Part shown: positions 6,331-45,417 of the stretch, piece after piece
Position numbering within the stretch: the first letter of the stretch is position 1
How the letters are laid out: each line of letters begins with the position of its first letter
From: Candidatus Levyibacteriota bacterium
GTDB taxonomy: Bacteria > Patescibacteriota > Microgenomatia > Levybacterales > UBA12049
NCBI GenBank assembly: GCA_016199085.1
Contig: JACQHJ010000003.1
Span: forward strand, 38,676-102,675
Reading direction: 5' to 3'
DNA length: 64,000 bases
Notes under the pieces: model-generated
What the model was told of the DNA's origin: nothing
Databases searched by the model: none
The model's input: the letters and a program-made list of their open reading frames with translations, nothing else
Made by a program: the position numbers and the translations under genes

Positions 6331-7479
6331 TTATAAACTAGCTTTGTCAACTGCTAATTTATTAACGTTTATTCCAACGGCTTGTTTCACATTTTTATAC
6401 CCATCTTTTTTTAACAAACCTATCAGTTCCGAGTTAATAAGTGCCGCAGCAGCCGGTCCTTCAAAAATTAATCCTGTAATAAATTGCACAAGAGATGCTC
6501 CCAGTTTTATTTTGTGATATGCGTCTTGCCCGTTAAATACTCCACCGCAGCCAATGATAATTAATTTATCTTTGTAGTTTTTATATGCAAGTTCAATAAG
6601 ACGATTTGAGTCTTCCCAGGTCGGCTTTCCACTGAAATTTCCCACAGGATATTTCGCAGTTTCATTTTTGTCCAAAGTTTTATTATTTCTGTTTTTCTGA
6701 AGGTTTCCAAAAATTACACCATCCATTTTGTTTTTGGAAATAACGTCAAGCAAAGACAGCGCTTCTTTGTCGTTTTTATCAATCGGCATTTTGACAAAAA
6801 TTGGTTTTTTAATATTTAAAGCTTTAATCTTTGTTAAAAGCTCGTCAAGTTTATCAGGATCATAAAAAGTAACCTTTGTATTTAGGTTTGGGCAACTGAT
6901 ATTTAATTCGTAATATTTTGTTTTTAAATCGAATTCTTCGGCTTTTTTAAATGCCGTAACAATATCTTCTACCGCGCTTTCCTGAGTAAACTTTCCCGTA
7001 TTTGTTTGCCCAATGCTAATACCGATTGGAATTTGGAAGTTATAATTTTTAAGCTTATTGCCTACTGCATCAATTCCGTTATTTTTAAATCCTTTGTTAA
7101 CCATTAAGGATTTTGATTTCAAAAGCCTCGCAAGCCTTGGTTTTGGGTTTCCTTCAAAGGCATGGTTTGTAATAGTTCCAACTGTTCCAAAACCAAAACC
7201 TATTGATGGAAGAATCTGCGTAAGAGAGGCGGTATAATCAAATCCTGCAGCAAGACCTATTGGATTTTCAAAAGTTATTCCTTTTATGTTTTGCGAAAGA
7301 ATCGGAGATTTAATATTAAAAATAAAAAAAGCTAGCTTTCTGGTAAGCAGGGTTTTCCCTAAAATCTCTCCATATCTTACTAAAAGATTATGGATTAATT
7401 CGCTGTTAAATAGAAAAATTACCTTAGTTAAAAGATGTTTATAAATATAGTTATAAAACCTAAGCCAGTATTTTTTCAT
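6331..7479 (-). CDS. pyrD: Dihydroorotate dehydrogenase, membrane-anchored quinone-dependent type (class 2)
   Basis: NPIGLAAGFD, FGFGTVGTIT...GNPKPRLARL and ELNISCPN motifs, plus an N-terminal hydrophobic anchor. Confidence 0.8.
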   Translation of the reverse strand: MKKYWLRFYNYIYKHLLTKVIFLFNSELIHNLLVRYGEILGKTLLTRKLAFFIFNIKSPILSQNIKGITFENPIGLAAGFDYTASLTQILPSIGFGFGTVGTITNHAFEGNPKPRLARLLKSKSLMVNKGFKNNGIDAVGNKLKNYNFQIPIGISIGQTNTGKFTQESAVEDIVTAFKKAEEFDLKTKYYELNISCPNLNTKVTFYDPDKLDELLTKIKALNIKKPIFVKMPIDKNDKEALSLLDVISKNKMDGVIFGNLQKNRNNKTLDKNETAKYPVGNFSGKPTWEDSNRLIELAYKNYKDKLIIIGCGGVFNGQDAYHKIKLGASLVQFITGLIFEGPAAAALINSELIGLLKKDGYKNVKQAVGINVNKLAVDKASL

Positions 7480-7890
7480 TTAAACTTTTGGGGCAGGCTC
7501 TTTCTTAAAATCCAGGGCGCAAGAATTTATACAATATCTAAGACCCGTTGTTTCCTTGGGACCATCATTGAATAAATGTCCCAAATGCGATCCGCAATTT
7601 TTACAAACTACCTCAGTCCTTTTCATACCATAGCTTTCGTCATCTTGTAAAAGAATATTTTCCCTGTTAACTGGATTATCAAAGCTTGGCCATCCTGTTC
7701 CTGAATCAAATTTTGTTTCCGAAGAAAAAAGAGACTGTCCACAAGCTGCACAAATATACATTCCGGTTTCATGGTTGTCGTAAAGGTTTCCACTAAAAGC
7801 AGGTTCAGTTCCTTTTTCTCTTAAGACATGGTAAGCTTTAGGCGTAAGCTTTTTCCTCCAGTCTTCTTCTGACATGATTTTGGGGTTCAT
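7480..7890 (-). CDS. msrB: Peptide-methionine (R)-S-oxide reductase MsrB
   Basis: CxxC...GWPSF...[21 protein letters not shown]...GLRYCINS, which is the SelR/MsrB signature. Confidence 0.9.
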
Positions 7891-7906
7891 ATGTGTATTA
7901 TACCAA

Positions 7907-8938
7907 TCATGACAATTTTTTAAAAATTTTAATCTTATTTAAAACAAAAACTATAAATATTGAAGGAAAGAATATCACTACAAATTGAAGTACCGGATTT
8001 TGCAGAATTACGTTTTGTTTTGCTAAAACTAAAACCAGATCCAAAATTATAAAATGGATAAAAAAGATAGCGTAAGAATTTTTACTTATATATAAGTACA
8101 TTTGCTTTAGAACTGCATTTTGCCAAAACCTTAGCTTTCCTATTAACAGAGAAAAACAGGTTAAAGAAAGTCCAAAAAACAAATAGTAAAAATCTGGAGG
8201 ATATTTATGATCATAAAAGTTTAACGATTTACCAAACTTCATGTTTAGAAAATAAAATCCTAAATATAAAAGAAAGAATATTAAGCCAAATATGAAATAT
8301 CTCTTATTTGTCATGAATCCGTTTTCATCATGTTTTCCTTTTAAAGATATAAAAATTGAAAATATTAAAACCAATGACCAGGGAGCTAACATTGTAAAAC
8401 GGTATAAGGAATATGGTGAACCATAAAAAGTAAAAAATAGAGTTATAAAACCAGATAATAAAAGATAACCAGTCATAAACCATTTATTCTTGAAGAAATT
8501 TATAAAGATTGGGAAAAGTAACGTTAGCTCGACAAACAATATTACAAGAAAGTTGTAATTTGTTCCCCCTATTAAAAGTGCCGATTTTGCAATATAGGAG
8601 AGGTCTCTCGAAAGACCCAAGCCTGCAAATAGATTTGGAAAAAGAGTCCAAGGCCCCAAATGAACACCAAGATAAATATAGAAAGGTACTAGAAGCCTTA
8701 TTAATCTTTTCTTGTACCAGGTAAAAGTATTAGATATAGATGTAAATGCATTCTCATAGATTGAGGCGAGAACAAAACCTGAAGCAAAAACAAAAGATAT
8801 TACAAAAAATTGAAGATTGTTCCAAAGAAAAATATTAAAGGGATTTGTGAGACTTCGTGTAAGGATGTGAATTAGAATGACTGCAATAATTCCGAAAGCT
8901 CGCAGAATATCTACCTCGTCAAATCTTTTTCTCTCCAC
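7907..8938 (-). CDS. Acyltransferase family 3 (OafA-like) membrane protein
   Basis: Polytopic membrane protein. The N-terminal [15 protein letters not shown] matches the acyltransferase_3 R/H motif. Confidence 0.55.
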
Positions 8939-12728: not shown

Positions 12729-14999
12729 TTAGTTTGCTAAATCTACCATTCCCATCACGTCTTTTCTATTCTTATATAACTGGTTAATACCCAAAATGTT
12801 ACTGACATCTGTTTTTACTTTTGTGTAGATTGCATAAACCCTGCTTTCTCTAATCTGGTTTTGGGCAAGTTTATTGCCAAGAGCGCTGTCTTGGAAATAT
12901 ATTCCGATTCCGTTATTGGTTAACAGATTTTTACTTATTTCATTCAAATCTGATTTTACATATACTCCTACTTTATTTCTGTCAAAAGTATTATTTGTTA
13001 TTAAATTATTATTTGCTTTATCATAAAAATATATTCCGTATAAAACGCTTCCTGAAATGTTATTTTCCACTACTGTGTTTTTATTTGAGGAAACATTTGC
13101 CCTAACACCGTGTCTATTGTTCTTAACGGTATTTCCTAGGACAATGTTATTACTAGATCTCCATAGGGCAATTCCACTGGTATTTCCGGAAACAGTATTA
13201 TTTTCAATAATGTTAAAGTCAGATTTTTCATGAAGCATTATTCCGTGGGATTTATTGTCATAGGAAATATTATCTCTAATTGTGTTATACATGCAGCGTT
13301 TTGAAAAGATTATCCCGTGGGTTCCGTTATTGTGGGCAATATTTTTTTCAACCAAGAACCCGTTTGAATCATCGTGGGGATCCAAACCGTATCTTATATT
13401 GTCATAGAATTCATTACCACGCCAGGTCATTCCCGTTGCGCCGTATGTGTATGCACCGAAATAGTTGTGATGGAATTTACTGTTAATAACTTCACCCGTT
13501 AATAAAACTTTTTTTAATTTCAAACTGGACAATTTCCACGAAATTCCGTATGGAGAAACTGAAATATCTGATTTGGTTGGATATCCAAGATATGAGATGT
13601 CAGAATCGTAAACATCAAGTCTTGAATTGTCTTTTACCATAATGAAGCTTCTTCCGTCAGCCAGTTCAAAATCATAATTTGACTTACTACTATCCCATGA
13701 AGTAACCTTGACTCCATTTATGATGATATCTCCGTTTCGAGATCTTAGCATTGCAAATCCCTTACTGTTACTTTCAAGTTTTAGCCAGGTAACTTCATTT
13801 TTATCAAGTTTTAAAGTTGCACCATCTGCCAGAAAGATTGTCGCCTTGGAAATCCAGACTTTTGGAGACTGCTCTAAGAGATAATTTGCACCGCCTCTTT
13901 GGGCAATATCTGAAAGAGTAAATACTCTTCCTCTTCCGCTTACCAAAAGAGTATTGGTAGATTTATCATAAGTAACACTGGCTGCAGGGACTTCAACCTC
14001 TCTTACAAGACCAAACTCAGGAACCAGTGCAATATCTTTGCCCGGAATCGATATTATCTGCCCGTTAGAAATTGTCCTGTTTGGCGCCTTTGCCATATTG
14101 GCAAAATATAGCTGATCACTGCTTATGCCGTATTCCTGTGCAATAGCTGAAAGAGTTTTATTATCCTTTACTTCTACGCGTTTAGTTAATAAATCCTTAT
14201 TAACGGTTTGCGTTCCCAAAACAGCTGCGCTTGCAATAGTATTTGAATTTGTAATCAATGCCTGTGCCAATATCTGATCTTTCTGTGTATGCGGCATTAA
14301 ATATGTATATTGTTTATAAAGATAAACACCATAGGCTAAAAACAAAACTACCGCCGCTGTGGCAACATATGCAGGAAGAGAGTTAATAAACTTAATATGA
14401 GGAAGCCTTGATTTATCCCATCTTGTTATCCAACCCTGAGTGTTTAACGTAAAGAAAGCATAGATTTTAATAAGTCCAGTAAGAAAAGAGTAGATAACGT
14501 ATCCTGGAAGTATATAAATGTTTTTGGGATCTTTTGATAAATAAGGATGAATTTTAATGGCTCTGCTTGTAAACCACCAGACAAAAATAACTGCGGCTGC
14601 TATCCAAATCCCAAGATACAAAGATACAAAAAAATAAATTGGACTTAGTATTACTACAAATGACTGGAGGAATTTATCTATTTGGAAAAATAAAAGTGCG
14701 GGATGTTTCAGTGGCCACCCATTAAAAATTGCTCCAAGATCCGCTCTCAAACCGTTTCTTGTCCATCTTAGTCTTTGTTTAAGATAAGCTCTTAAACTTT
14801 CCATCCCCGGCGTATAGACGTGTGAATTACTTTGATATGCAACCTTAAAACCTGCTTGTAAAACTAAATAGGTAAGTCTTTTATCATCGCCTGATATAAC
14901 AGGTCTTCCCAAAAACTTCTCATTAACTAATTTTTCAAGCATTGGGGTAATAATTTCTCTTATAAAAAGCTGTTCTTCCTGAAAGACAGACAAGTGCAT
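12729..14999 (-). CDS. C-terminal portion of a processive family-2 glycosyltransferase (chitin/cellulose/hyaluronan-synthase-like). It carries the SGDDKRLT and QRLRW motifs and TM helices, and is fused to a LysM domain and a C-terminal parallel beta-helix repeat domain
   Basis: GDDKRLT and QRLRWTRN (the QxxRW motif), a LysM segment (LSAIAQEYGISSDQLYFAN...ISNGQIISIPGKD), and NosD-like beta-helix repeats. It is contiguous with ORF 14935..15627 through a +1 frameshift. Confidence 0.75.
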   Translation of the reverse strand: MHLSVFQEEQLFIREIITPMLEKLVNEKFLGRPVISGDDKRLTYLVLQAGFKVAYQSNSHVYTPGMESLRAYLKQRLRWTRNGLRADLGAIFNGWPLKHPALLFFQIDKFLQSFVVILSPIYFFVSLYLGIWIAAAVIFVWWFTSRAIKIHPYLSKDPKNIYILPGYVIYSFLTGLIKIYAFFTLNTQGWITRWDKSRLPHIKFINSLPAYVATAAVVLFLAYGVYLYKQYTYLMPHTQKDQILAQALITNSNTIASAAVLGTQTVNKDLLTKRVEVKDNKTLSAIAQEYGISSDQLYFANMAKAPNRTISNGQIISIPGKDIALVPEFGLVREVEVPAASVTYDKSTNTLLVSGRGRVFTLSDIAQRGGANYLLEQSPKVWISKATIFLADGATLKLDKNEVTWLKLESNSKGFAMLRSRNGDIIINGVKVTSWDSSKSNYDFELADGRSFIMVKDNSRLDVYDSDISYLGYPTKSDISVSPYGISWKLSSLKLKKVLLTGEVINSKFHHNYFGAYTYGATGMTWRGNEFYDNIRYGLDPHDDSNGFLVEKNIAHNNGTHGIIFSKRCMYNTIRDNISYDNKSHGIMLHEKSDFNIIENNTVSGNTSGIALWRSSNNIVLGNTVKNNRHGVRANVSSNKNTVVENNISGSVLYGIYFYDKANNNLITNNTFDRNKVGVYVKSDLNEISKNLLTNNGIGIYFQDSALGNKLAQNQIRESRVYAIYTKVKTDVSNILGINQLYKNRKDVMGMVDLAN

Positions 15000-15627
15000 C
15001 TCCGCAAGCAGCTAGAAACGGGTATTCATGTTTATATCGAAGATCGAGTTGGACATCAAAGATCTTTTGAGCAAAGGTCTTGGGATTTAAAACGCTTTGA
15101 TAAGTTGCGACTCCGGCCATCCTTCTGTCATTAAACGGAGGAAGTCCGTTTTGAAGCGTATCGGGTGACCAGATCGTGTCACTATCAACGAGCGCAACGA
15201 TTTCTGATTTTGCCCTTGCTATTCCATCAGCCAAGGCTTGTCTTTTGCCAGGAACTTTTGTAACAATCAAAACTCCCCTTTTAAAGGATTTCTTAAACTT
15301 TTCAAAAATTTGGATACAGGTTTTATCTGTATAATCAATTACCGCAATTATCTCCGAAGGCTTATTATTCCTCCAGGACTCTAAAGCTTTTGTAAATACT
15401 TTTGGATCTTCATTGTAGACCGGAGTCACTATTGAGACTTCTGCCTCATATGGCTTTGTTCTAGGTTTATAATGAAGACCTATTATTTCTTTCATCATCC
15501 AGACAGACCATCTCCAAATCCCTATTACCCCTAAAGGAACAAGAAATGAATATCTGTCCAGATACTGCTCTGACCAAAAGGCAATGTCTGATAAGAATAA
15601 TTGAAAATTAATAATAAGTGCTTCCAT
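14935..15627 (-). CDS. N-terminal portion of the same GT2 glycosyltransferase (DxD motif VDSDT), separated from the downstream part by a frameshift in an A5/T5 homopolymer at about 14965-14969
   Basis: TPVYNED...VDSDT...ACGDALVCLSGRTAFY is a typical GT2 A-domain. The two ORFs overlap by 65 nt in different frames. Confidence 0.75.
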   Translation of the reverse strand: MEALIINFQLFLSDIAFWSEQYLDRYSFLVPLGVIGIWRWSVWMMKEIIGLHYKPRTKPYEAEVSIVTPVYNEDPKVFTKALESWRNNKPSEIIAVIDYTDKTCIQIFEKFKKSFKRGVLIVTKVPGKRQALADGIARAKSEIVALVDSDTIWSPDTLQNGLPPFNDRRMAGVATYQSVLNPKTFAQKIFDVQLDLRYKHEYPFLAACGDALVCLSGRTAFYKRNYYPNA

Positions 15628-36465: not shown

Positions 36466-36500
36466 AGTTGTGCTGAGCATACCGCTCTCGACCCATTACA
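36466..36500. repeat. Intergenic repeat copy A (consensus about tTGtGCTGAGCATaCCGgTCTaGAACC), one of three
   Basis: Seen directly by aligning 36468-36500, 37168-37200 and 37706-37740. Confidence 0.5.
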
Positions 36501-36552
36501 TCATTATAGCGGTCGGGCTGAAGCTGAATAAGGCAATATCAGAATATTTAAT

Positions 36553-37165: not shown

Positions 37166-37200
37166 CACGTTTTTGTGCTGAGCATACCGGTCTAGAACCG
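37166..37200. repeat. Intergenic repeat copy B
   Basis: The sequence tgtgctgagcataccggtctagaacc is seen directly. It lies 30-60 bp upstream of the maf start. Confidence 0.5.
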
Positions 37201-37214
37201 TTTTGTCGTTATAA

Positions 37215-37664
37215 CTACTTGTCTAGTTTGAATATGCTTATATCTTCTTCTGATAAATTATCCTTCTCCCAAAATTTGAGCCTGTGCCAAATAGTTTGTC
37301 CTTTCATATCTTTTTGAATTGCGACTACTAGCTTTTTATAGAAATCGTCACTATCGCCGCCTGCTGGTTTTTTGCTAGAATGCGCAGCGATAAATTTATT
37401 AGCTAAGCGAATAACAGTTGCCGAAGCATAAAGGGGAGCATGAGTATAAAGTTCTTCCATGAAATTCTTTTGTCTTTCCTTATCAATCCATCCCTCAAAA
37501 AAACCAATTATATTTTCGAGAAATTTTTTATATTGATCTTCTTTCCTTTCTCTTGCGTAAAGCTCCCGCTCTCTGTTTCTTTCGAATCGATCATTAAGAT
37601 ATGCGCCAATAAGGCCACCCAATCCTAACGATCCGACTAGGGCAATAAGTATTTCAGAATTCAT
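37215..37664 (-). CDS. Hypothetical protein with N-terminal TM
   Basis: ORF only. Confidence 0.4.
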   Translation of the reverse strand: MNSEILIALVGSLGLGGLIGAYLNDRFERNRERELYARERKEDQYKKFLENIIGFFEGWIDKERQKNFMEELYTHAPLYASATVIRLANKFIAAHSSKKPAGGDSDDFYKKLVVAIQKDMKGQTIWHRLKFWEKDNLSEEDISIFKLDK

Positions 37665-37705
37665 TTATTATTAAAACTGCAGACACGCTCATGATTGTGT
37701 TTGTT

Positions 37706-37765
37706 TTTGCTGAGCATCTCGGTTTAGAACCACCTTATCTTTATTGCTATTCTAGATTGCCTACT
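37706..37765. repeat. Intergenic repeat copy C, followed by an att-like TATTCTAG...CCTACT segment
   Basis: The sequence tttgctgagcatctcggtttagaacc...gctattctagattgcctact is seen directly. Confidence 0.5.
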
Positions 37766-38321
37766 CTTGTTTAACGCCTATTGTGCGTTGAGACTCTAAT
37801 TTATTGGCCGCTTCTAAAAAAGATGCTCTATCATTCAAGTCTATATCTTTACTCATTTCCTTAAAACTTTCTAATTGTTCTTTTGTTTGAGCTATTAAGA
37901 TGTCTTTATGTTTTAGATAAAACCACAGACGAAATGCAGTCATGAAGCCTGTAATCTCAATGGTTAACTCTTGATACATCCTAATATCGTCCCAGATAAC
38001 AAATTCGCTTGATGCTGGATTAAATCTCAGTAATTTATCAGGATCACTATTTGCATGTTTAAAAAAATTATAGGGTTCATTAAGTTTTTTTAGCACAAAG
38101 GCCTGTTTCTCTGGTTTTATGTATCCATCCATCTGGGATTTAAAAGATTTTATGCCTGAGGCTTTTCCTATTCCAGATAGTATTTCTTCGGCAGCGCAAG
38201 CAGAAAGGTGAATTATTACAAAATCTCCATAATTAAAAAACAATTTAATAGCATGCTCTAATTCTCTTTTTGCAACATCTAGCTTTGAGACGTTTATGAT
38301 TTTTTTAGTTTCTTCGTCCAT
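37761..38321 (-). CDS. Hypothetical protein
   Basis: ORF only. Confidence 0.4.
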   Translation of the reverse strand: MDEETKKIINVSKLDVAKRELEHAIKLFFNYGDFVIIHLSACAAEEILSGIGKASGIKSFKSQMDGYIKPEKQAFVLKKLNEPYNFFKHANSDPDKLLRFNPASSEFVIWDDIRMYQELTIEITGFMTAFRLWFYLKHKDILIAQTKEQLESFKEMSKDIDLNDRASFLEAANKLESQRTIGVKQE

Positions 38322-38333
38322 ATACTATTCAAT

Positions 38334-38422
38334 CTTGCTGGCTACTTACGAAAAATGTCGAACTTCGTTTCTTAAATAGTCGCTTCGCTCCTACTATTTT
38401 AGAGCTCGGCCTCGCCTCGCTC
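38334..38422. repeat. Inverted repeat X (89 bp), a perfect reverse complement of 43622..43710; begins with the 7-bp core CTTGCTG
   Basis: Direct base-by-base comparison of the two segments. Confidence 0.9.
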
Positions 38423-38439
38423 TTTTGTATTTTTTGCCA

Positions 38440-38900
38440 GAACGAACAAACCTTTTCGCGCGATTTTTATTATACCAAATAACCCGCCCGCCCGACGGAA
38501 AGGAGCGGCGACCCCGCCTTTATGCGAGAGGACTTCCTAGGGGAAGTCTCGCCAGTATCTTTACTTTTTTAAAACTCTTTACAGTCTCTTACTCGCCCCG
38601 CTTCGGCGGGGCTAAATTTCTTCTAACTTAAAACCGCCTGCAGTCAGCGGGGTACTTCCGCTTTTCGCCCCCGCCGATGTTATTCTACCCCCTATTTAGT
38701 TTACGATCTTTGGGATAAACCATATTGGCTCGCCCCGCAAGGTTTCAAGTAAAAGAAGTTTCCGCGGGGCTCGCTTTGGTCGGACTGCCTATACCAAGTC
38801 GGTGGTAAATAAAGTTTTCCTAACGGCAGTTCTCCTTTTAAGGGCGTAATCCTCACGGTGCGGGGGCGGCGGACGCTGCCAATCATTTTTGTCTGAAAAA
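38440..38900 (+). ncRNA. Candidate structured non-coding RNA of unknown class. It is a GC-rich island of about 460 nt in AT-rich DNA with multiple perfect hairpins, including a UUCG tetraloop (GCCCCGC-UUCG-GCGGGGC)
   Basis: There is no plausible ORF; the six-frame ORFs are R-rich artefacts. Hairpins include gacttcc-tagg-ggaagtc, gccccgc-ttcg-gcggggc, and gccccgc...gcggggc. Confidence 0.3.
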
Positions 38901-38988
38901 TTTGACGATAACAGACATTAATAGCTTACAAACTTACGTGAGATAACAGCCTCAAATATACTACATTCAGCCTATTTAATAGTATATC

Positions 38989-39017
38989 TTGACAATAATA
39001 GTAAGATATGTTATAAT
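38989..39017 (+). promoter_or_regulatory. Perfect sigma70-type promoter TTGACA-17 bp-TATAAT, 7 nt upstream of the ATG of the first operon gene (a near-leaderless transcript)
   Basis: TTGACA at 38989-38994, a 17-nt spacer, TATAAT at 39012-39017, and an ATG at 39025. Confidence 0.6.
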
Positions 39018-39024
39018 ACAAGCC

Positions 39025-39243
39025 ATGAAAGAAGATAGAGCACAAAGATTTAAGAGAATCGCCACATATAGAACAAACGAGGTCTTGGATAAGCTCAGGC
39101 TCTTAGGGAATCTCTCCAACAAAGCTAATTATGAATATACAGAGGACGAGGTAAACAAAATATTTTCAGCTATAGAGATTCAGTTAAGAATTGCTAAGGC
39201 TAAATTTTCTTCTTCAAAGAAAAAGAAAGAGTTTTCGCTATGA
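39025..39243 (+). CDS. Small hypothetical protein (72 aa), first gene of the four-gene operon
   Basis: The ORF from the ATG at 39025 overlaps the next gene by 4 nt (ATGA). Confidence 0.45.
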   Translation: MKEDRAQRFKRIATYRTNEVLDKLRLLGNLSNKANYEYTEDEVNKIFSAIEIQLRIAKAKFSSSKKKKEFSL

Positions 39244-39845
39244 GTAATGAAGAATTAACAAATGTTGATATCGTCTTGTACTCGCTTTATTTGCTTGGTG
39301 GTAGTAGAAGAAAGATTTTTACCGAAGATATCGCCAAAAAGTGTTTTGAATTAGCACAAGATCGTTTTTCTTGGAGAAGATATCCAGAATACCCAGATAT
39401 TGAGCCTGCAAGAAAATCTTTAATGGAAGCAAGAAACCAGAAAGACTTAATAAGCGGCAGGGCAGGAGAAGTTAAGGGTACAAAACCATCTGATGGATGG
39501 ATTTTCTCTCCTGAAGGTGTGTTCTGGATAGAAAAAAATAAATCACGTATTGAAAAAGCGCTAGGCAAAAAACAAAAACCTATCAAGAGAACAGAACTTT
39601 CCAAAAAAATTGCCGAGCTTGAATCTTCAAGCGCATTCTTAGAATTTTTGAAAGAAAAGACGTGCAACAATATCAAAGCTTATGAATTCACTGATTTTCT
39701 AAACGTTAGCCTTGATACCCCATCATCAGTAATCAAGAGTAGAATTCAAACTGTTAAGGCTCTTGCAGCATCAGAAAAAAGAGAAAAACTTCTTACATTT
39801 ATTGCGCTTTGCGAAAAAAATTTTTCCAAATTAATTAATAATTAA
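39240..39845 (+). CDS. Hypothetical protein (201 aa), second gene of the operon
   Basis: Translationally coupled to both flanking genes. Confidence 0.5.
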   Translation: MSNEELTNVDIVLYSLYLLGGSRRKIFTEDIAKKCFELAQDRFSWRRYPEYPDIEPARKSLMEARNQKDLISGRAGEVKGTKPSDGWIFSPEGVFWIEKNKSRIEKALGKKQKPIKRTELSKKIAELESSSAFLEFLKEKTCNNIKAYEFTDFLNVSLDTPSSVIKSRIQTVKALAASEKREKLLTFIALCEKNFSKLINN

Positions 39846-39846
39846 C

Positions 39847-42096
39847 ATGAATCCAAATTCTAATATAATTTTTGGCCAACCACAAAAATTTGATATATCT
39901 GATAGATACTTTCTTCAAACAGCTGAGAGCGCAATGAAAGGAGATGTAATAAGGGGGTTAGTTGAATTAATTACCAATGCTGATGACAGTTACGAAGAAG
40001 TTGAGTCAAAAGGATTAACTAGTAGCGGGAAAATACTCATTGAAATAATAAGAAAAAAGCAAGGCAAAAATAGTTTAATTAAGGTCGTTGATAAAGCTGA
40101 AGGAATGAAGCTGGAAGAAATGGTTATTAAGTTAAAAAGGGTTGGGGGGATGACAAGCCATTTTATTGAAAGCAAAGGATTAAAAACGAGAGGATTAATG
40201 GGTAGAGGTAGCAAAGAATGTGTGGTTTTTGGTCCTTTAACTTTCAAATCAATAAAAGACAATATTTATTCTGAAGTTGTTTTAAAAAAACCTGCAATCT
40301 TTATTCCGCAAATCGAAAGACCTGTAACAGAAGTCGACAGAGTAAAGCTAGATATTAAAGGGAATGGAACAGTTGTGGAATTAAAAGTTGAACCACATTT
40401 TCAAATTCCGAGCCATAACTCTTTAGTAGAGAATTTACCAAAATATTACAGTCTGAGGGATATTACATCCAATCCCAAAAGAATAATTGAGTTAAGTGAC
40501 GGTAAAAGATCTGATAGGCTAGTTTACAATCCTAAAAAAGGCACTGTTGTACTAGATGAAGTAATTAATGTTATGGAATATCCTGGCGCGCAGGCTCATC
40601 TCATTCTAATAAAAACGCCTGAATCAATTGAGGTTGAAAGTAATTCTCCTTTTTGGGAAGGTGGAATATTAATTCAAAGCGGGCATGCAGTTCACGGCGT
40701 AACGGGATTCACTAGAGATATCGAGAATAATCCTTATTTTGTACATTATTTTGGAAGATTGGTTTGTACTTATATTGATATTCTTGCAATAGAATATGAA
40801 GAATATGAAAAAAATAATCAAGCGCATACCGCGTTAAACCCATCGAGAATTATCGAACCATTAAGAAAGGAAGGATTATTCTCTAACCATCCCTTTACTA
40901 AGATTTTGTATAGAGAAGCTTCACGGAGAATAAAAAATCTTTTGAAAAAAGACGAGGAACTCTCTACCTCAATGATTAAAGAAATAGAAAATAAAAAAAC
41001 AAAAGATAGACTCAAAAGGCTGGCTGACGCAGTTAGCAGGTTTATTAAAGAAAGGACTGAAGATTTGGAAATAGAAGATGATAACTATCTTTCTGGTTCT
41101 GACATTCCCGTTGGTGGGATGATTGTGATACCTGGTGGACTTAGAGTTCCAATTGGTGAAGAAAAAAGGTTTTATGTTTATGTTAAACCAAAAATACAAC
41201 AGGATAGATTTGTTACGCTTTTTACTCAGTCCAGCGCAATAGCCCTAAGCTCTAAAAAGGAAGAGCTAATTGAAAGGAATGATGGAACTTTTTACGCCCA
41301 GTTCTCTGTAAAAGGAGTTGATTATGTCAATGACGCTATAGTTAAGGTAAATTGGTCGAATATAGAAAATAATGTTCCTGTTTCAGTAATTAAAAAGGAA
41401 GAAGATCATCCATTTATTACTGACTTCTCTTTTGAAAAAAATAAATATAATTTACGTGAAGGTAAACAGAAGGATATTTATTTATTGGCTAAATGGCCTG
41501 ATTTTGTCCACGGATGGGCGGAATGTACTATTGAGACAAACAAAAATGAATTTTTAACAGTTTTGGGTAATAAAACTAGATTAAAATATAAACGATTTAA
41601 CGATGGGACACAGATGGCCATAGGAAAAGTCAAAATATATGGGGTAAAAACGGGAGGCCCAACCATAATTAAAACGTCTATAAATAATAAAACAGTGCAA
41701 ACAGAAATAAATGTTCTTCCAAAATTGGAGTTAGGACATAATATCGAGATCAAATTGGTTGATGAAGAAGCGGGAGCACAGAGAGCAGTTTGGGATGGGG
41801 ACATTTTAAAAATAAATACGAGACATAAAACTATTCATAGATATTCCGGTCCACCACCTGACTATTTAGGACAAGATTCAATTCATTTTCATTTGTTGTT
41901 GGCAGAATTGATAGCAGATAATGTAGCTAGGCGAGTTTTAGAATTAAATGCTGAAAAAAATATACATAAATATCAAGATATGGATATATATGGTTTTTAT
42001 GATATACACAGAAAGTATGTAAATGATTTCTTAGAAGTTGCCCATAACATTCAAATTCCCGATAATGAACTTGTAAATATTGTCCTTAATTCTTAG
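39847..42096 (+). CDS. Large protein (749 aa) with a putative N-terminal GHKL-type (Bergerat-fold, MORC/Hsp90/MutL-like) ATPase domain, then a coiled coil and a beta-rich C-terminal region
   Basis: N-box-like ELITNADDS, G1-box-like VVDKAEGMKLEEM (a degenerate DxGxG), and G2-like TRGLMGRGSK. I recognised nothing in the remainder. Confidence 0.5.
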   Translation: MNPNSNIIFGQPQKFDISDRYFLQTAESAMKGDVIRGLVELITNADDSYEEVESKGLTSSGKILIEIIRKKQGKNSLIKVVDKAEGMKLEEMVIKLKRVGGMTSHFIESKGLKTRGLMGRGSKECVVFGPLTFKSIKDNIYSEVVLKKPAIFIPQIERPVTEVDRVKLDIKGNGTVVELKVEPHFQIPSHNSLVENLPKYYSLRDITSNPKRIIELSDGKRSDRLVYNPKKGTVVLDEVINVMEYPGAQAHLILIKTPESIEVESNSPFWEGGILIQSGHAVHGVTGFTRDIENNPYFVHYFGRLVCTYIDILAIEYEEYEKNNQAHTALNPSRIIEPLRKEGLFSNHPFTKILYREASRRIKNLLKKDEELSTSMIKEIENKKTKDRLKRLADAVSRFIKERTEDLEIEDDNYLSGSDIPVGGMIVIPGGLRVPIGEEKRFYVYVKPKIQQDRFVTLFTQSSAIALSSKKEELIERNDGTFYAQFSVKGVDYVNDAIVKVNWSNIENNVPVSVIKKEEDHPFITDFSFEKNKYNLREGKQKDIYLLAKWPDFVHGWAECTIETNKNEFLTVLGNKTRLKYKRFNDGTQMAIGKVKIYGVKTGGPTIIKTSINNKTVQTEINVLPKLELGHNIEIKLVDEEAGAQRAVWDGDILKINTRHKTIHRYSGPPPDYLGQDSIHFHLLLAELIADNVARRVLELNAEKNIHKYQDMDIYGFYDIHRKYVNDFLEVAHNIQIPDNELVNIVLNS

Positions 42097-42138
42097 CTGT
42101 GAAGAGAGAGTAACGAGGATATAATCCAGTTAGAATTT

Positions 42139-43425
42139 ATGCCAAAGAAATCATACAGAATAGGTGAATTACCTCAAGAGCTTAAAACAAAAAGTGTTTT
42201 TTATTACGTTAACGAAAAGCAAGGTTTAAAAGTAAAATCAAAAGAAGTATTCAAAAATGGAGAAAAAGTTGTTCACTATCCATTTAAAAGGGATGGCACT
42301 CCTAAATATAGAAATATAAGAAAAATTACATATGAAAATATGCCAGAGAATTTACCAAGAGGATTTTATAAAGAATGGACTAAAGGTTATGGTTTTACTC
42401 GTGTATATAATCCCTTAATTTATCGACTTGATGATGCATTAAAAATTCAAGAAGTTATAGTTAGCAAAAACATAATCACAAAATTTGAAAATGGAAAACT
42501 ATATTTGAACTCTGATAAATTAGACTCATCTTATCCCAAAATAGATTTGCTTTTAAAAAAACACAATGTTGAAATTGATAATTTAGCTAATGATATTTTG
42601 TCGAAGTATTTCCCTCAAACTTTCAAGAATAAATCTCAGAAATACATAAAAGGAAGCTTAGCGCAATTTATAGATAAAAATGTAACTCAAATCTCTGATT
42701 TATCAGAAGCAGACACGCAATCCTTATTTGATCTTGCCTCTAGAATTTCAAAAGATGATTTTCTAGAAAGTAAAACCAGTGTATTAAAGACTAAAGAAAA
42801 AATTGAAGAAGTTTATATTGAAGAAGTAATTGAAGAATTTGAAAAATTATTATCTAGAAAGAATTTGACTAAAAATTTAGAAGAAAGATGGCAGAAGTTT
42901 TTTACGCAATATAATTGGATCTTTTCTCAATTATTTTCATTTCCAGTTTTAATTTTTAAAGATAAGGCTTATGTGGGAGGGAAAGGTATAGAAAATGCAA
43001 ATGGGAAAATCTCTGATTTTATCTACAAAAATAAATTAACAAACAATATTGCTTTTATAGAAATTAAGACTCATAAAACTCCAATACTTATTGATAAACC
43101 ATATAGAGGAAATGATGTTTATTCTGTAAGTAAAGACATGAGCGGAGCTGTTAATCAGGTATTAGATCAAAGAGATAATTTTCAGAAAGAATTTTATTCT
43201 CTTAAATCTAAAAGTAAAAATAAGAATTTTGAATCTTACAATTCTAAGTGTATCATTATCACTGGTAGCTTAAGTAAGCTCTCGGAAGAAGAAAAGAAAT
43301 CCTTTGATTTAATGAGAAGCAATAGTAGAGATGTAGACATAATCACATTTGACGAAGTGTTAGAGAAAATTAAAGGACTAGAATCTTTACTTTTTGGTTC
43401 TAAGCAAAAATCTACTGCAAATTAA
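42139..43425 (+). CDS. Protein (428 aa) with a C-terminal DUF4263/Shedu-like PD-(D/E)xK nuclease domain
   Basis: DFIYKNK...IAFIEIKTHK (D...ExK), QVLDQ...Y, and C-terminal IIITGS...DIITFDEV resembling the DUF4263 C-terminus. Confidence 0.45.
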   Translation: MPKKSYRIGELPQELKTKSVFYYVNEKQGLKVKSKEVFKNGEKVVHYPFKRDGTPKYRNIRKITYENMPENLPRGFYKEWTKGYGFTRVYNPLIYRLDDALKIQEVIVSKNIITKFENGKLYLNSDKLDSSYPKIDLLLKKHNVEIDNLANDILSKYFPQTFKNKSQKYIKGSLAQFIDKNVTQISDLSEADTQSLFDLASRISKDDFLESKTSVLKTKEKIEEVYIEEVIEEFEKLLSRKNLTKNLEERWQKFFTQYNWIFSQLFSFPVLIFKDKAYVGGKGIENANGKISDFIYKNKLTNNIAFIEIKTHKTPILIDKPYRGNDVYSVSKDMSGAVNQVLDQRDNFQKEFYSLKSKSKNKNFESYNSKCIIITGSLSKLSEEEKKSFDLMRSNSRDVDIITFDEVLEKIKGLESLLFGSKQKSTAN

Positions 43426-43500
43426 TACACCTTGCGTTATTGTAAAAGTTTTGTTTTTTGCTATAGTAAAACGGTAGTCAAACTTTTCTTTTCGGTTTTT

Positions 43501-43553
43501 TAATGGCCGCATTGGACAGATCCGAAAAGGGTTTGACTACACCAGTGCGGCCA
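43501..43553. other. 13-bp-stem hairpin (aatggccgcattgg...ccagtgcggccatt) immediately downstream of the operon; candidate terminator or recombination site
   Basis: Inverted repeat with one mismatch and a 24-nt loop, seen directly. Confidence 0.3.
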
Positions 43554-43621
43554 TTTGAGTACTTTAAAATTTTTGCGTTTTTCTCCCAAAGACGATTTGG
43601 GAACGAGTCGACAGTTTTTGA

Positions 43622-43710
43622 GCGAGGCGAGGCCGAGCTCTAAAATAGTAGGAGCGAAGCGACTATTTAAGAAACGAAGTTCGACATTTTTCGTAAGTAG
43701 CCAGCAAGCT
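43622..43710. repeat. Inverted repeat X' (reverse complement of 38334..38422)
   Basis: Direct comparison. Confidence 0.9.
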
Positions 43711-43809
43711 AGAATAATTAAACCTACGAGGACCTAAACCCTCCGCCGGAAAACTTTCAGAAAGAACGGCAAATCCGGCCTTTTTGAAATCAGCAGACAG
43801 TCGTCGAAA
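43704..43809. repeat. Inverted repeat Y' (reverse complement of 45245..45349; 93 bp perfect plus an extension with 2 mismatches). It abuts and overlaps X' at the shared core CAGCAAG
   Basis: Direct comparison. Confidence 0.9.
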
Positions 43810-43849
43810 GAAAAAGAAGAGAAAAACGCAAAAATTTAAGAATAAGAAC

Positions 43850-45406
43850 ATGATTAAATACATAGCATACTGTAGGAAATCAACAGATGAACCGGACAGA
43901 CAAATTTTGTCTATTGAAGCTCAAGTTGCCGAACTTGAGGAATTCGCCGCAAAAGAAAATTTGAAAATTGTTTTATTTATTACCGAAAGTAAAACCGCCA
44001 AAGAGCCGGGAAGAGAAAAATTTGCTCAAGTTTTAGAAATGATAGAAAAAGGAGAAGCAAGCGGCATAATCTCCTGGCATCCTGATAGATTAGCCAGAAA
44101 TTCTGTTGATGGCGGAAAGATTATCTATTTACTTGATACCGGAAAACTTTTGGATTTAAAATTTCCCTCTTTTTGGTTTGAGAATACTCCACAAGGAAAA
44201 TTTATGTTATCGATCGCCTTTGGGCAGAGTAAGTATTATGTCGATAATCTTTCCGAAAATGTTAAAAGAGGAAACAGGCAAAAATTGAGACGCGGTGAAT
44301 GGCCTAATCAAGCGCCTTTTGGTTATTTAAATATAAATAAGAAAATCGAAGTTGATAAAAAACGAGCAAGGTTTGTTAAAAAGGCATTTCAACTTTACTC
44401 AACCGGTGCTTATGGTTATGCCGATATCCGCAAATTTTTCACTCAAAACAAAATTTTCAATAAATCAGGCCATAAACTTCACTTAGATAAAATAAAAAAG
44501 ATTTTAACAGACCCTTTTTATTATGGCCTGATGAAGTTTTGCGGCGAATTATACGAAGGAAGCCACCTGCCCCTAATTTCTAAGAAACTTTTTGATAAAT
44601 GCCAAGAAATTGTTAAGCTAAAGAGCAGGAAAGTTAAAAATAATAAACATCTTTTTAATTTCTTGGGAATGATTAAATGCGGCGAGTGTGGCTCTATGAT
44701 TACTGCCGAAAAACATACAAAGATTTACAAAAGAACTAATAGAAGGGTTGAATATGTTTATTACCGCTGCTCCAAAAAGAAAGGTAAATGCTTGCAAAGA
44801 TATATTAGTAAAGAAGAAATTGAGGAACAGATAAGAAATATCCTTTTGCAAGCTTCTTTAACCCAATTCGCCGCCAAAAAGTTTCTTGAATGGGCAGAAA
44901 AAGACATAGCCAAAGAAAAACAACAATCATCAAGCGTTACTTTGGATTACAAAGACCAAATTAAAGATACTGATGAAAAACTAGAGCGGTTACTTGATGG
45001 TTATTTAGATAAGGTTATTTCTCCCGAAGATTACCAAAAGAAAAAGAACGAACTTGTTGATACAAAATCGGTTATTAACTCCAAAATTAAGGATATTTCT
45101 ACAAACGGAGTTGAATGGCTCGAACCTTTTCAAGAATTCGTAAATAACGCACTGCAGTGCGGAAAAATCGCACGGGCAAAAAATACAAACGAAGAATTGG
45201 CATTCTTCGCAAAAACTGTCGGCTCGAACTTCTCTTTACTCAATCGGCGACTGTCGGCTGATTTCAAAAAGGCCGGATTTGCCGTTCTTTCTGAAAGTTT
45301 TCCGGCGGAGGGTTTAGGTCCTCGTAGGTTTAATTATTCTAGCTTGCTGTCGGACTTGGATTCGAACCAAGATTACCAGATTCAGAGTCTGGATGCCTAC
45401 CATTAG
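43850..45406 (+). CDS. Large serine recombinase (resolvase catalytic domain, recombinase domain, zinc ribbon and coiled coil)
   Basis: YCRKSTDEPDRQ...SIEAQ (catalytic Ser context), SWHPDRLARN, recombinase-domain GEWPNQAPFGYLN, and zinc ribbon CGECGS...YYRCSKKKGKC. The start is set at the ATG at 43850, because the upstream part of ORF 43784 lies in the inverted repeat. The last 50 codons are encoded by repeat Y and the antisense of tRNA-Gln. Confidence 0.9.
   Translation: MIKYIAYCRKSTDEPDRQILSIEAQVAELEEFAAKENLKIVLFITESKTAKEPGREKFAQVLEMIEKGEASGIISWHPDRLARNSVDGGKIIYLLDTGKLLDLKFPSFWFENTPQGKFMLSIAFGQSKYYVDNLSENVKRGNRQKLRRGEWPNQAPFGYLNINKKIEVDKKRARFVKKAFQLYSTGAYGYADIRKFFTQNKIFNKSGHKLHLDKIKKILTDPFYYGLMKFCGELYEGSHLPLISKKLFDKCQEIVKLKSRKVKNNKHLFNFLGMIKCGECGSMITAEKHTKIYKRTNRRVEYVYYRCSKKKGKCLQRYISKEEIEEQIRNILLQASLTQFAAKKFLEWAEKDIAKEKQQSSSVTLDYKDQIKDTDEKLERLLDGYLDKVISPEDYQKKKNELVDTKSVINSKIKDISTNGVEWLEPFQEFVNNALQCGKIARAKNTNEELAFFAKTVGSNFSLLNRRLSADFKKAGFAVLSESFPAEGLGPRRFNYSSLLSDLDSNQDYQIQSLDAYH
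45245..45349. repeat. Inverted repeat Y, ending in the core CTTGCTG, which overlaps the 3' end of tRNA-Gln
   Basis: Direct comparison with 43704..43809. Confidence 0.9.
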
Positions 45407-45417
45407 CAGATCCGACA
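45347..45417 (-). tRNA. tRNA-Gln (anticodon CUG), 71 nt, CCA not encoded
   Basis: Manual cloverleaf: acceptor UGUCGGA/UCCGACA (U1:A72), D-stem UGCU/GGCA with loop AAUGGUA, anticodon stem CCAGA/UCUGG with loop CUCUGAA, T-stem CUUGG/CCAAG with loop UUCGAAU, and discriminator G. Confidence 0.8.

Follow-up and report, generated by a model that had tools for sequence, protein, structure and literature searches.

Large serine integrases are prized because they work on two short sites and in one direction, and how that direction is set and reversed is a central question about them. The described enzymes (A118/LI, Bxb1, phiC31, SPbeta SprA, SCCmec CcrAB and XisF) are three-domain proteins with a coiled-coil insert; their attachment (att) sites share a short core, the recognition motif lies about 5 bp further out in attP than in attB (PMC3783163), and integration leaves hybrid attL and attR sites. 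Here we analyse a 64,000-nucleotide stretch of DNA from Candidatus Levybacteria (Candidate Phyla Radiation, CPR; Patescibacteria), hereafter called the window (contig JACQHJ010000003.1, positions 38,676 to 102,675). An integrated mobile element of about 7 kb occupies positions 38334-45349 of this window; a large serine recombinase (LSR) mobilises it, and its insertion point is nucleotides 71-73 of a tRNA-Gln gene. Its nested inverted repeats are the shared arms of attL and attP (named X) and of attP and attR (named Y). We consider it highly probable that this is an integrated, tRNA-targeting LSR element that keeps a conserved, spare attP in inverted orientation. It has the general features of the described integrases listed above. 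It differs from them in its sequence (at most 29% identity to annotated phage and plasmid LSRs), in targeting the T-arm and 3' end of many tRNAs with only one conserved attB half, in having attP in the 3' end of the recombinase gene itself, in its repeated arms of about 75-90 bp, in the retained, intact inverted attP, and in that a directionality factor is not evident. The element is a serine-integrase integrative element with an unexplained conserved feature.

In its genomic setting, the element resembles the islands and prophages that tyrosine integrases insert into tRNA genes (Islander-type islands, tycheposons), which likewise target tRNA 3' ends, carry small variable cargo with defence genes, form tandem arrays and occur several to a genome. 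It is distinguished from these by its serine recombinase, by a core of 4-11 bp in place of a long direct repeat of the tRNA 3' segment, and by a crossover at nucleotides 71-73; domain searches found no tyrosine recombinase in the element, and only the 7-bp core is directly repeated. The Hin, Gin, Cin and Pin invertases, Min and the shufflons are alike in serine-recombinase chemistry and in placing inverted crossover sites beside the recombinase gene or on either side of it, and hin is located inside its own invertible segment. Invertases of the Hin/Gin type are small (about 190 aa), end in a C-terminal helix-turn-helix, act on 26-bp sites with a Fis-bound enhancer and are commonly found with both orientations of their segment, whereas the enzyme studied here is a 518-aa protein with integrase-type C-terminal domains, its orientation is essentially fixed and its unit is an insertion. 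The serine transposase of IS607-type elements is small, carries its helix-turn-helix at the N-terminus and shows little preference for a target; the LSR matches them in the catalytic domain alone, and its target is tRNA-specific. The element is not a small-invertase system, an IS607-type transposon, a tyrosine-integrase island or an integron. A literature search, in which subscription journals were thinly covered, returned no tRNA-targeting LSR family in CPR and no integrated LSR element with a retained inverted attP. This agrees with an earlier reading of the locus, made from the sequence only, which had called the arrangement non-standard for large serine recombinases, and the LSR family is apparently undescribed so far. 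It unites one-sided recognition of the tRNA T-arm, retargeting among at least 11 tRNAs, an attP in its own gene and an extra inverted attP that evolves in concert.

Inverted repeats were surveyed over 36-47.5 kb of the window (11.5 kb) and the arm boundaries were set by base-by-base comparison. The att sites and their arms are the following.

38334-38340, plus strand: core of site A (attL-like), CTTGCTG, in the order flank, core, X.
38341-38422, plus strand: left copy of the X arm with the P'-type half-site (TTACGAAAAATGTCGAAC); perfect inverted repeat with 43620-43701.
43620-43701, minus strand: X' arm, the inverted X copy and left half of site B.
43702-43708, minus strand: core of the internal site B, CAGCAAG, the reverse complement of CTTGCTG; an intact attP-like site, placed immediately 5' of the LSR gene.
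43709-43820, minus strand: left copy of the Y arm, an inverted copy of the recombinase 3' coding end; perfect to 43794 and imperfect to 43820.
45231-45342, plus strand: right copy, the Y' arm, P-type left arm of attR; perfect from 45257; codes for recombinase residues of about 461-498.
45343-45349, plus strand: core of site C (attR-like), CTTGCTG, in the order Y', core, tRNA; overlaps tRNA nucleotides 71-73.

The X pair (38334-38422 and 43620-43708) is perfect over 89 bp with the 7-bp core included. The sequence-only reading had its length and left arm right and placed its right arm 2 nt too far along, at 43622-43710. That reading had also described the Y pair as a perfect repeat of about 100-106 bp: the long pair exists (43702-43794 and 45257-45349), is perfect for 93 bp including the core, and then continues with five mismatches out to 43820/45231, for a total of 119 nt at 93%. 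All remaining inverted repeats in the surveyed span are at most 30 nt long and at most 88% complementary. CTTGCTG itself is not over-represented in the window (7 copies, with 6.2 expected), so the signal resides in the arms and not in the core. The same core stands at all three junctions, which read flank-CTTGCTG-X at site A, Y'-CTTGCTG-X at site B in reverse complement and Y'-CTTGCTG-tRNA at site C, just as first proposed, and the cargo between the X copies, estimated then at 5.2 kb, measures 5197 bp. The left X arm also holds an alternative recombinase tail with its stop codon and a GC-rich segment.

The recombinase gene, its upstream motif, the tRNA target and the host gene on the far side of the element lie as follows.

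43850-45406, plus strand: LSR gene, 518 aa, with the Pfam domains Resolvase, Recombinase and Zn_ribbon_recom.
43823-43835, plus strand: conserved U motif AAAACGCAAAAAT, 13 nt, just 5' of the LSR start codon.
45347-45417 (Rfam, 58.1 bits) or 45346-45417 (ARAGORN), minus strand: tRNA-Gln (anticodon CTG), the integration target, whose T-arm is the attB-type half-site.
37761-38321, minus strand: host gene of 186 aa, no assigned function, natively next to tRNA-Gln on its downstream side; 12 nt separate its ATG from the attL core.

The presence of a large serine recombinase gene with the Y copies was thus borne out by a single 518-aa open reading frame (ORF) carrying all three domains. Its catalytic domain is matched by PF00239 (E=2.2e-21), with R9 and S11 of the motif YCRKSTDE invariant in 24 homologues, and PF07508 (E=4.5e-12) and PF13408 (E=1.9e-10) match as well. 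Matches in the PDB are to resolvase domains only. An AlphaFold2 model contains long coiled-coil helices at residues 339-386 and 392-419 (mean pLDDT only 65), and the last 46 residues (473-518) are predicted to be disordered. All NCBIfam matches are far below cut-off, the IS607 match being confined to the catalytic domain (31.7 bits with a cut-off of 110), and no relative of the window LSR was found among IMG/VR viral contigs; with at most 29% identity to annotated phage and plasmid enzymes, neither phages nor plasmids offer a context for it.

The 3' end of this gene is composite, since the ORF crosses Y' and the core and then runs through 19 codons of the tRNA-Gln antisense strand. The last 50 codons had been ascribed to Y as a whole; about 29-37 of them are indeed encoded by Y', two come from the core and the final 19 from the tRNA antisense strand. 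Thus attP lies inside the 3' end of the LSR ORF, and the tail is tRNA antisense in the integrated form and X-encoded in the attP form, in which the protein would end in …LLATYEKCRTSFLK followed by a stop; site B still has that frame, on its minus strand. Many homologues share the length of 518 aa and end in ...LLxxDSN..., where DSN is the translated antisense tRNA T-loop (GAT TCG AAC), so read-through into the tRNA is a family trait. An exact protein look-up of the window LSR found no record in the protein collection, and the adjacent 186-aa protein is recorded there (P0121, Candidatus Levybacteria, HY344_02390). The LSR gene was probably left uncalled, or called differently, owing to its overlap with the tRNA, and annotation pipelines may be systematically missing or truncating the family.

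We then compared the locus with its relatives. L-numbers denote the related loci that were analysed by self-BLAST, ARAGORN and tBLASTn; 80 came from species-representative genomes, 80 from metagenomes and nine more through neighbouring proteins. The LSR family is very large in CPR/Patescibacteria, mostly in Microgenomates lineages; a single scan confirmed 376 matches in genomes, and metagenomes yielded at least 550. The LSR is enclosed by a Y-type inverted pair in 63 of the 80 genome loci, and 36 of the 80 show the full nested order of X, cargo, X', then Y, LSR, Y', then a minus-strand tRNA. In most of the other genome loci, the contig ends immediately 5' of the LSR or the cargo exceeds 10 kb, and the nested layout is present among the 80 metagenome loci too. 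In every locus with Y alone, an X-type half-site abuts Y wherever sequence exists there; the internal site B is universal in the family. A tRNA stands exactly at site C in 97 loci, and the targets comprise at least 11 tRNAs (Gln, Pro, Glu, Lys, Val, Ile, Leu, Trp, Ser, Phe and Gly). The layout recurs in most of 161 related loci from independent assemblies (JGI, ENA and NCBI; different groups and assemblers), among them the closed genomes CP011210, CP011214 and OZ246414, while CP055307 keeps only a 44-bp Y pair. Over these loci arm identity ranges from 85 to 100%, and visibly decayed examples exist. Of the three readings first offered for the locus, the one that saw a tRNA-targeting integrative element with an internal att site is therefore supported, and it holds for the related loci across the family.

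Several relatives preserve the state before insertion. In the window, the core spans tRNA nucleotides 71-73 and four trailer bases, and the tRNA is the sole Rfam match between 37.5 and 46 kb. In L166 and L168-L170, which are relatives at 43-58% protein identity, an intact tRNA-Gln stands unoccupied and is followed after 8-46 nt by a homologue of the 186-aa gene; L168 also matches the window in its GltX and MFS synteny, which in the window lies on the right of the tRNA. The search for an unoccupied tRNA-Gln locus in related genomes, proposed with the first reading, thus turned up such sites, and beside the same neighbour gene. Similarly, tRNA-Leu and tRNA-Val are separated by 6 nt in L037, and in L028 the second element (13021-15345) takes up precisely the space between them; the L058 element separates tRNA-Phe from tRNA-Val, a pair that is adjacent in L013 and L014. 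Empty tRNA sites and adjacent tRNAs in relatives together establish that the unit is an insertion. For the window element, the predicted empty attB reads ...TATACTATTCAAT-CTTGCTG-TCGGACTTGGATTCGAACC. Several metagenome-assembled genomes (MAGs) hold two or three elements, and these sit at different tRNAs. Genomes of about 1 Mb with two or three paralogous elements include those of L013 and L028, JADHUT01 (L026, L049, L066), MFJZ01 (L034, L035) and MHCL01 (L005, L051); in L013 and L028, two elements lie less than 5 kb apart inside one tRNA cluster.

An alignment of the junctions of 46 non-redundant loci showed how the sites are built. The family core is 4-11 bp long and always includes tRNA nucleotides 71-73. 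Next to it, the X arm is strongly conserved, with the consensus GTTTAC.AAAAAAT.TCGAAC, and mimics the antisense tRNA T-loop. In the tRNA half, TCGAA starts at +13 from the core; in X, it starts at +17/18. Of 82 loci, 78 have a shift of 4 or 5 bp. In serine integrases, the motif bound by the zinc-ribbon domain lies 5 bp nearer the centre in attB than in attP (PMC3783163). The outward shift of 4-5 bp matches this hallmark, so that X is a P'-type and the tRNA a B'-type half-site. Only the right half-sites display the shift: the motif is faint or absent in the left halves, Y' (the LSR 3' coding end) being weakly conserved in a way that is confounded with its coding function and the host flank being without conservation. 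The imperfect dyad symmetry by which serine integrases recognise both half-sites is absent, and the alignment suggests that attB recognition is essentially one-sided. In the tandem arrays L109, L016, L021 and L081, the outer junction is of the type Y'-core-X, which is explained by an incoming attP recombining with a resident attR (Y'-core-tRNA). X-type tails of homologues had been considered as signs of flipped or circular forms; the contigs inspected are tandem arrays (L081, L109) or end inside the repeat (L032), and thus give no sign of inversion. A palindromic crossover dinucleotide enabling deletion between inverted sites was also considered and rejected, as the minimal cores GTGA and GTGG have no palindromic dinucleotide at the shared positions.

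The orientation of the two arcs was compared between assemblies, not between reads, using as marker the U motif and its inverted copy in the module at the right end of the cargo arc.

43426-43619, no strand assigned: rt module, about 190 bp, with the inverted U-motif copy (43569-43581), the motif TTCGAGCCGACAGTTT and a hairpin; conservation of the module extends to at least 30 loci.

The U motif 5' of the LSR and its inverted copy in the rt module bracket site B symmetrically. The cargo is in the standard orientation in 33 loci, flipped in one (L021) and without the marker in 11. The LSR arc is flipped in none, as compared with the 97 loci that have the tRNA at the LSR 3' end, and no plus-strand tRNA was found upstream of the LSR. 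Phase-variable segments usually occur in both orientations across assemblies. Across the assemblies compared, the locus is not a free-running inversion switch, and any inversion would have to be rare or transient. Another candidate locus for a rearranged or flipped state, L025, was rejected; it is a complex locus with a second LSR remnant beside the tRNA.

The arms evolve in concert. Within an element, X is identical to X and Y to Y at a median of 0.99 over 80-90 nt, and at 100% in about half of 59 loci, whereas identity to the closest distinct element is typically 0.63-0.95. Counted from the core, identity stays at 0.9 or above for about 60 nt in X and about 80 nt in Y and reaches background by about 110-120 nt; the arms are about 75 nt (X) and 90 nt (Y) long. 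As conservative site-specific recombination cannot copy one arm onto another, an ongoing copying process must keep them alike, most simply gene conversion between inverted repeats.

To the left of attL, the window also carries short sites that mimic the tRNA target (D1).

36467-36512, plus strand: D1a pseudo-site, core-like TGTGCTG followed by a T-arm mimic at attB-type spacing; 3' of a Maf gene; its tie to the element is uncertain.
37172-37217, plus strand: D1b pseudo-site, TGTGCTG followed by AGCATACCGGTCTAGAACC; between the Maf gene and a 149-aa gene.
37704-37749, plus strand: D1c pseudo-site, TTTGCTG followed by AGCATCTCGGTTTAGAACC; between the 149-aa and the 186-aa genes.

Their consensus, GCTG followed by AGCAKNNCGGTCTAGAACC, joins the att core to a mimic of the tRNA T-arm, spaced as in attB, and also supplies an incoming LSR with an in-frame TAG. 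Every D1 site lies on the strand that is sense for the LSR, and each of several consecutive single genes has one at its 3' side. They form arrays in the window, L100, L116, L017 and L026, and were located at 2291, 4126, 4582, 5133, 5554, 11497 and 12067 in L100, at 33, 893 and 1360 in L116, at 1798, 2396 and 8018 in L017/L097, at 4132 and 4187 in L026, at 3282 in L115 and, as a single site, at 4787 in L028. The L100 array comprises five cassettes and looks integron-like, and the LSRs of L100 and L115 abut D1, not a tRNA. D1 sites were seen only with elements of the tRNA-Gln type, and a general search at other types of tRNA gave no mimic sites. The D1 arrays are reminiscent of integrons in their promoter-less single genes (putative cassettes), set in one orientation, each with a conserved site (about 45 nt in D1), beside a recombinase gene and its site. 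The two differ in that the enzyme here is a serine recombinase, no tyrosine IntI is present, D1 mimics a tRNA T-arm and has no attC-like fold, and cassette capture is conjectural. The integron-like view of D1 is weakened by the gene next to attL, which is the native neighbour of tRNA-Gln, and by the single cassette gene that is common to different arrays.

As the best explanation of the whole, covering the identity of the element, its working and the role of site B, we propose the following scheme, to which we give a probability of about 0.55. The free form would be a circle whose closing junction, Y'-core-X, serves as attP for integration; the circle would also carry the identical attP of site B in inverted orientation. 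The LSR would recognise the tRNA T-arm (GGATTCGAACC) as an attB-type half-site and the T-arm-like motif in X, 4-5 bp further out, as an attP-type half-site, with the host-flank half of attB essentially unrecognised. Given an unrecognised host flank, an occupied attR could be targeted again, which would produce the tandem arrays. With attP inside the LSR 3' end, integration would exchange the X-encoded tail for the 19 tRNA-antisense codons, and it would also set the LSR gene head-on to the tRNA promoter. It could in this way switch the LSR off and lock the insertion, the predicted disordered tail possibly acting as a stability or activity tag; if the resident LSR is off once integrated, sites B and C would never invert the LSR arc. 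Site B would then be the only intact chromosomal copy of Y' with the X tail and its stop, that is, a stand-by 3' end combined with an attP. A rare inversion across the Y repeats of about 90 bp would rejoin the LSR gene to the X tail and so re-arm the enzyme, and recombination or gene conversion between the repeats would keep the arms identical. The idea of a self-locking LSR with B as its stand-by 3' end is the one that we prefer for site B, but it is tentative, and we would sooner expect it to fail than to hold; the specific role given to the spare site is a shade more doubtful again. A conceptual parallel exists in the integration-dependent immunity of mycobacteriophages and Gordonia phages, in which attP reportedly lies in the 3' end of the repressor gene and integration removes a degradation tag (PMC3694055, PMC9635641). 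Both cases thus swap a protein C-terminus through an attP in a gene; in the phages, that gene encodes a repressor and the integrase is a tyrosine enzyme, and here the recombinase gene itself is split.

A number of observations weigh against this scheme. No circular form or excision junction was seen for the element or its relatives, and none of the contigs of the 80 metagenome loci is circular. No recombination directionality factor was identified, and no candidate for one is conserved in the minimal elements. The conserved peptide of the X tail is inseparable from DNA-level constraint on the X half-site, the tail is predicted to be disordered, and an effect of it on activity is conjectural. 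A retargetable attR implies inversion between B and C too, the absence of which is explained only by assuming that the resident enzyme is off. Finally, the D1 pseudo-attB sites are inverted relative to B within 6 kb and yet have not recombined with it. B may have a further role, as an operator for self-regulation of the LSR and for the divergent cargo module. This role is suggested by analogy: in Tn3/gamma-delta, res lies between the divergent tnpA and tnpR, the recombinase represses both, and res is at the same time the functional resolution site with three subsites. Site B likewise lies between the inverted U motifs of divergent modules, and a regulatory function for it is conjectural. Such a role would be compatible with the stand-by role, and an operator needs about 50 bp, not two identical arms of about 80-90 bp; we regard it as doubtful.

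The remaining explanations differ mainly in what they make of site B. Should B be a working second attP, it could allow integration in either orientation, integron-like capture of other DNA with tRNA-like sites, or, during excision, the work of a directionality factor by an accessory site. Several observations would fit: B is complete, occurs throughout the family and is kept identical to the functional arms, D1 sites with attB spacing stand in same-orientation arrays of single genes near elements and abut two LSRs, and no directionality factor is evident in minimal elements. On the other side, no locus shows B consumed, X' and Y have no cassettes between them, integrants with the LSR 5' end beside a tRNA are absent, the 186-aa gene by attL is the native tRNA neighbour and not a captured cassette, one cassette gene only is shared by arrays, and D1 accompanies tRNA-Gln elements only; we think this unlikely. 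Quite improbable, in our judgement, is the wider version in which the family would be a serine-recombinase counterpart of integrons as well as a self-locking integrase: the LSR would be active only while its gene is closed by the X arm and would insert at T-arms and D1, D1 cassettes would be captured and shuffled beside the X arm, and the inverted attP would stand in for the directionality factor, either by resetting the 3' end of the gene as a spare copy or by joining the synapse as its third site. B may also be a neutral, functionless duplication homogenised by gene conversion. No recombination product involving B was seen, close inverted repeats can be homogenised, and RecA is present in these lineages (seen in one relative). 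Against neutrality, B is retained among LSRs 48-92% identical and at 11 different tRNAs, a neutral copy of 190 bp should often be lost from genomes of about 1 Mb, and conserved motifs flank B symmetrically, which makes this view improbable. Any of the candidate functions of B (self-inactivation with a reset copy, auto-repression, a third synaptic site) would, if true, be a new control principle for LSRs.

Other explanations dispute that the unit is a single integrated element. The Gin/Hin-like segment of the sequence-only reading, taken here in a wider form with the LSR flipping the cargo (A with B) and its own gene (B with C) as a phase switch beside an incidental tRNA, is formally possible: both arcs are bounded by inverted sites with one common core, the L021 cargo arc has the opposite orientation, and contigs often break at B, where there may be mixed orientations or simply a repeat. 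We hold it to be very unlikely in view of the 33:1 orientation of the cargo and the 97:0 orientation of the LSR arc, the empty sites in relatives, a cargo with its own promoter and no promoter at the repeats, and a 518-aa LSR with attP/attB-type half-site spacing, which is a large serine integrase and not a small invertase. The inferred circle also resembles the yeast 2-micron plasmid (Flp/FRT), with two inverted repeats of about 190 bp that contain a recombination site and two unique arcs. The isomers of 2-micron are at equilibrium and Flp is a tyrosine recombinase, whereas one isomer dominates here; isomerisation of that kind is incompatible with the 33:1 cargo orientation, and LSRs are to our knowledge not known to recombine attP with attP. 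Still further down we place two side-by-side modules with terminal inverted repeats, a non-autonomous cargo unit X...X' and an LSR unit Y...Y' resembling an insertion sequence, with palindromic circle junctions. Each arc does have terminal inverted repeats, the cargo differs wholly between related backbones with breakpoints at X and the rt module, and the X arms (95-98%) are more conserved than the LSR (about 85%). Yet no LSR unit occurs without an X' half-site beside Y, the window contains no other X...X' unit, and the crossover dinucleotide is non-palindromic in many loci; moreover, fusion of palindromic circles predicts the same core orientation throughout, and the B core is the exact reverse complement of those at A and C. 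A fusion of two mini-circles with palindromic sites was rejected on the same ground, as it predicts the wrong core orientation at B. The assembly artefact envisaged at the outset, a repeat-induced mis-join of integrated (attL/attR) and excised (attP) forms, has a negligible chance of being right. The repeats (89-119 bp) are near assembler k-mer sizes, the source is metagenome-assembled and many related contigs end at the repeats; however, the Y repeat is mismatched at its inner end, the arms show the range of identity and decay given above, and the same architecture with different sequences is found in most of the 161 independent loci, complete genomes included.

The cargo arc and the remaining features of the element are listed below.

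38423-38890, minus strand: GC-rich conserved region just inside attL, candidate structured RNA of about 440 nt; motif AAAAATCGCGCG, with an outward-facing TGGTATAAT near 38465-38477.
38989-39017, plus strand: promoter of the cargo operon, perfect sigma-70 type (TTGACA-17-TATAAT with TG).
39025-43425, plus strand: cargo genes, namely a small ORF (39025-39243), a 201-aa gene (39240-39845), a 749-aa gene (39847-42096) and the Shedu gene SduA (42139-43425).
45189-45210, minus strand: terminator-like hairpin with T-run, antisense in the LSR 3' region, about 135 nt downstream of the tRNA; a consensus match only.

The first cargo ATG lies about 8 nt past the -10 hexamer. The last cargo gene encodes a homologue of SduA (PADLOC E=2.6e-88; Pfam SduA_C), and the 84-, 201- and 749-aa proteins had no match in Pfam, NCBIfam, PADLOC or PDB searches. 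The 749-aa and 201-aa proteins, encoded directly upstream of the SduA gene, may be its partners or a separate defence system. Related backbones whose LSR DNA is about 85% identical carry wholly different cargo, with breakpoints just inside the left X arm, itself 95-98% identical between them, and at the rt module. The cargo is thus an exchangeable cassette. In minimal elements, the cargo arc is reduced to 556-740 bp with one small ORF, unrelated between elements and usually directed away from site B, downstream of the inverted U motif. LSR elements are a major vehicle for accessory genes in the CPR genomes of about 1 Mb, with up to three per genome, and the cargo of the window includes a Shedu defence gene.

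The GC-rich region inside attL has homologues in, among others, L001 (208-660), L047 (3585-4095), L057 (1177-1705), L080 (4604-5057) and L041 (615-1063), and no match in Rfam. In an alignment of six sequences, 16 of 63 predicted pairs were changed on both sides, compared with 7.0 +/- 1.9 in shuffles, and 93% of cells were paired, compared with about 50% when the partners were slid. The folding z-score is -2.8 for the minus strand, the predicted fold has long-range helices, and G-U pairs favour the minus strand. This covariation makes 38423-38890 a candidate for a new structured RNA carried by a subset of the elements. An extended -10-like sequence, TGGTATAAT (38465-38477, minus strand), and the family-conserved AAAAATCGCGCG..AAAAAA (38440-38465) face outward over attL toward the 186-aa gene. 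Insertion has displaced this host gene from its place directly behind the tRNA, and the element may supply an outward promoter for displaced host genes.

A few loci depart from the common pattern. L161 is an 8.6-kb contig with a terminal inverted duplication of 2.1 kb (1-2126 and 6486-8610, 99%) that has an LSR, Y and an rt module at both ends, and is either a composite with two inverted LSR units or a repeat-induced assembly foldback. Carrier MAGs such as those of L001, L011, L014, L019, L021 and others are titled uncultured Gammaproteobacteria, Pseudomonadales or Saccharibacteria, although in gene content and LSR relatives they resemble Microgenomates; the taxon names given in these records seem unreliable. 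L016 (6310-11540) encodes a chimeric LSR whose body is of the window type (75% identity) and whose last 75 residues or so, together with the Y' arm, derive from a second subfamily. Its site B retains the Y arm of the first subfamily, and its attL has a Y' remnant of the second subfamily on the flank side.

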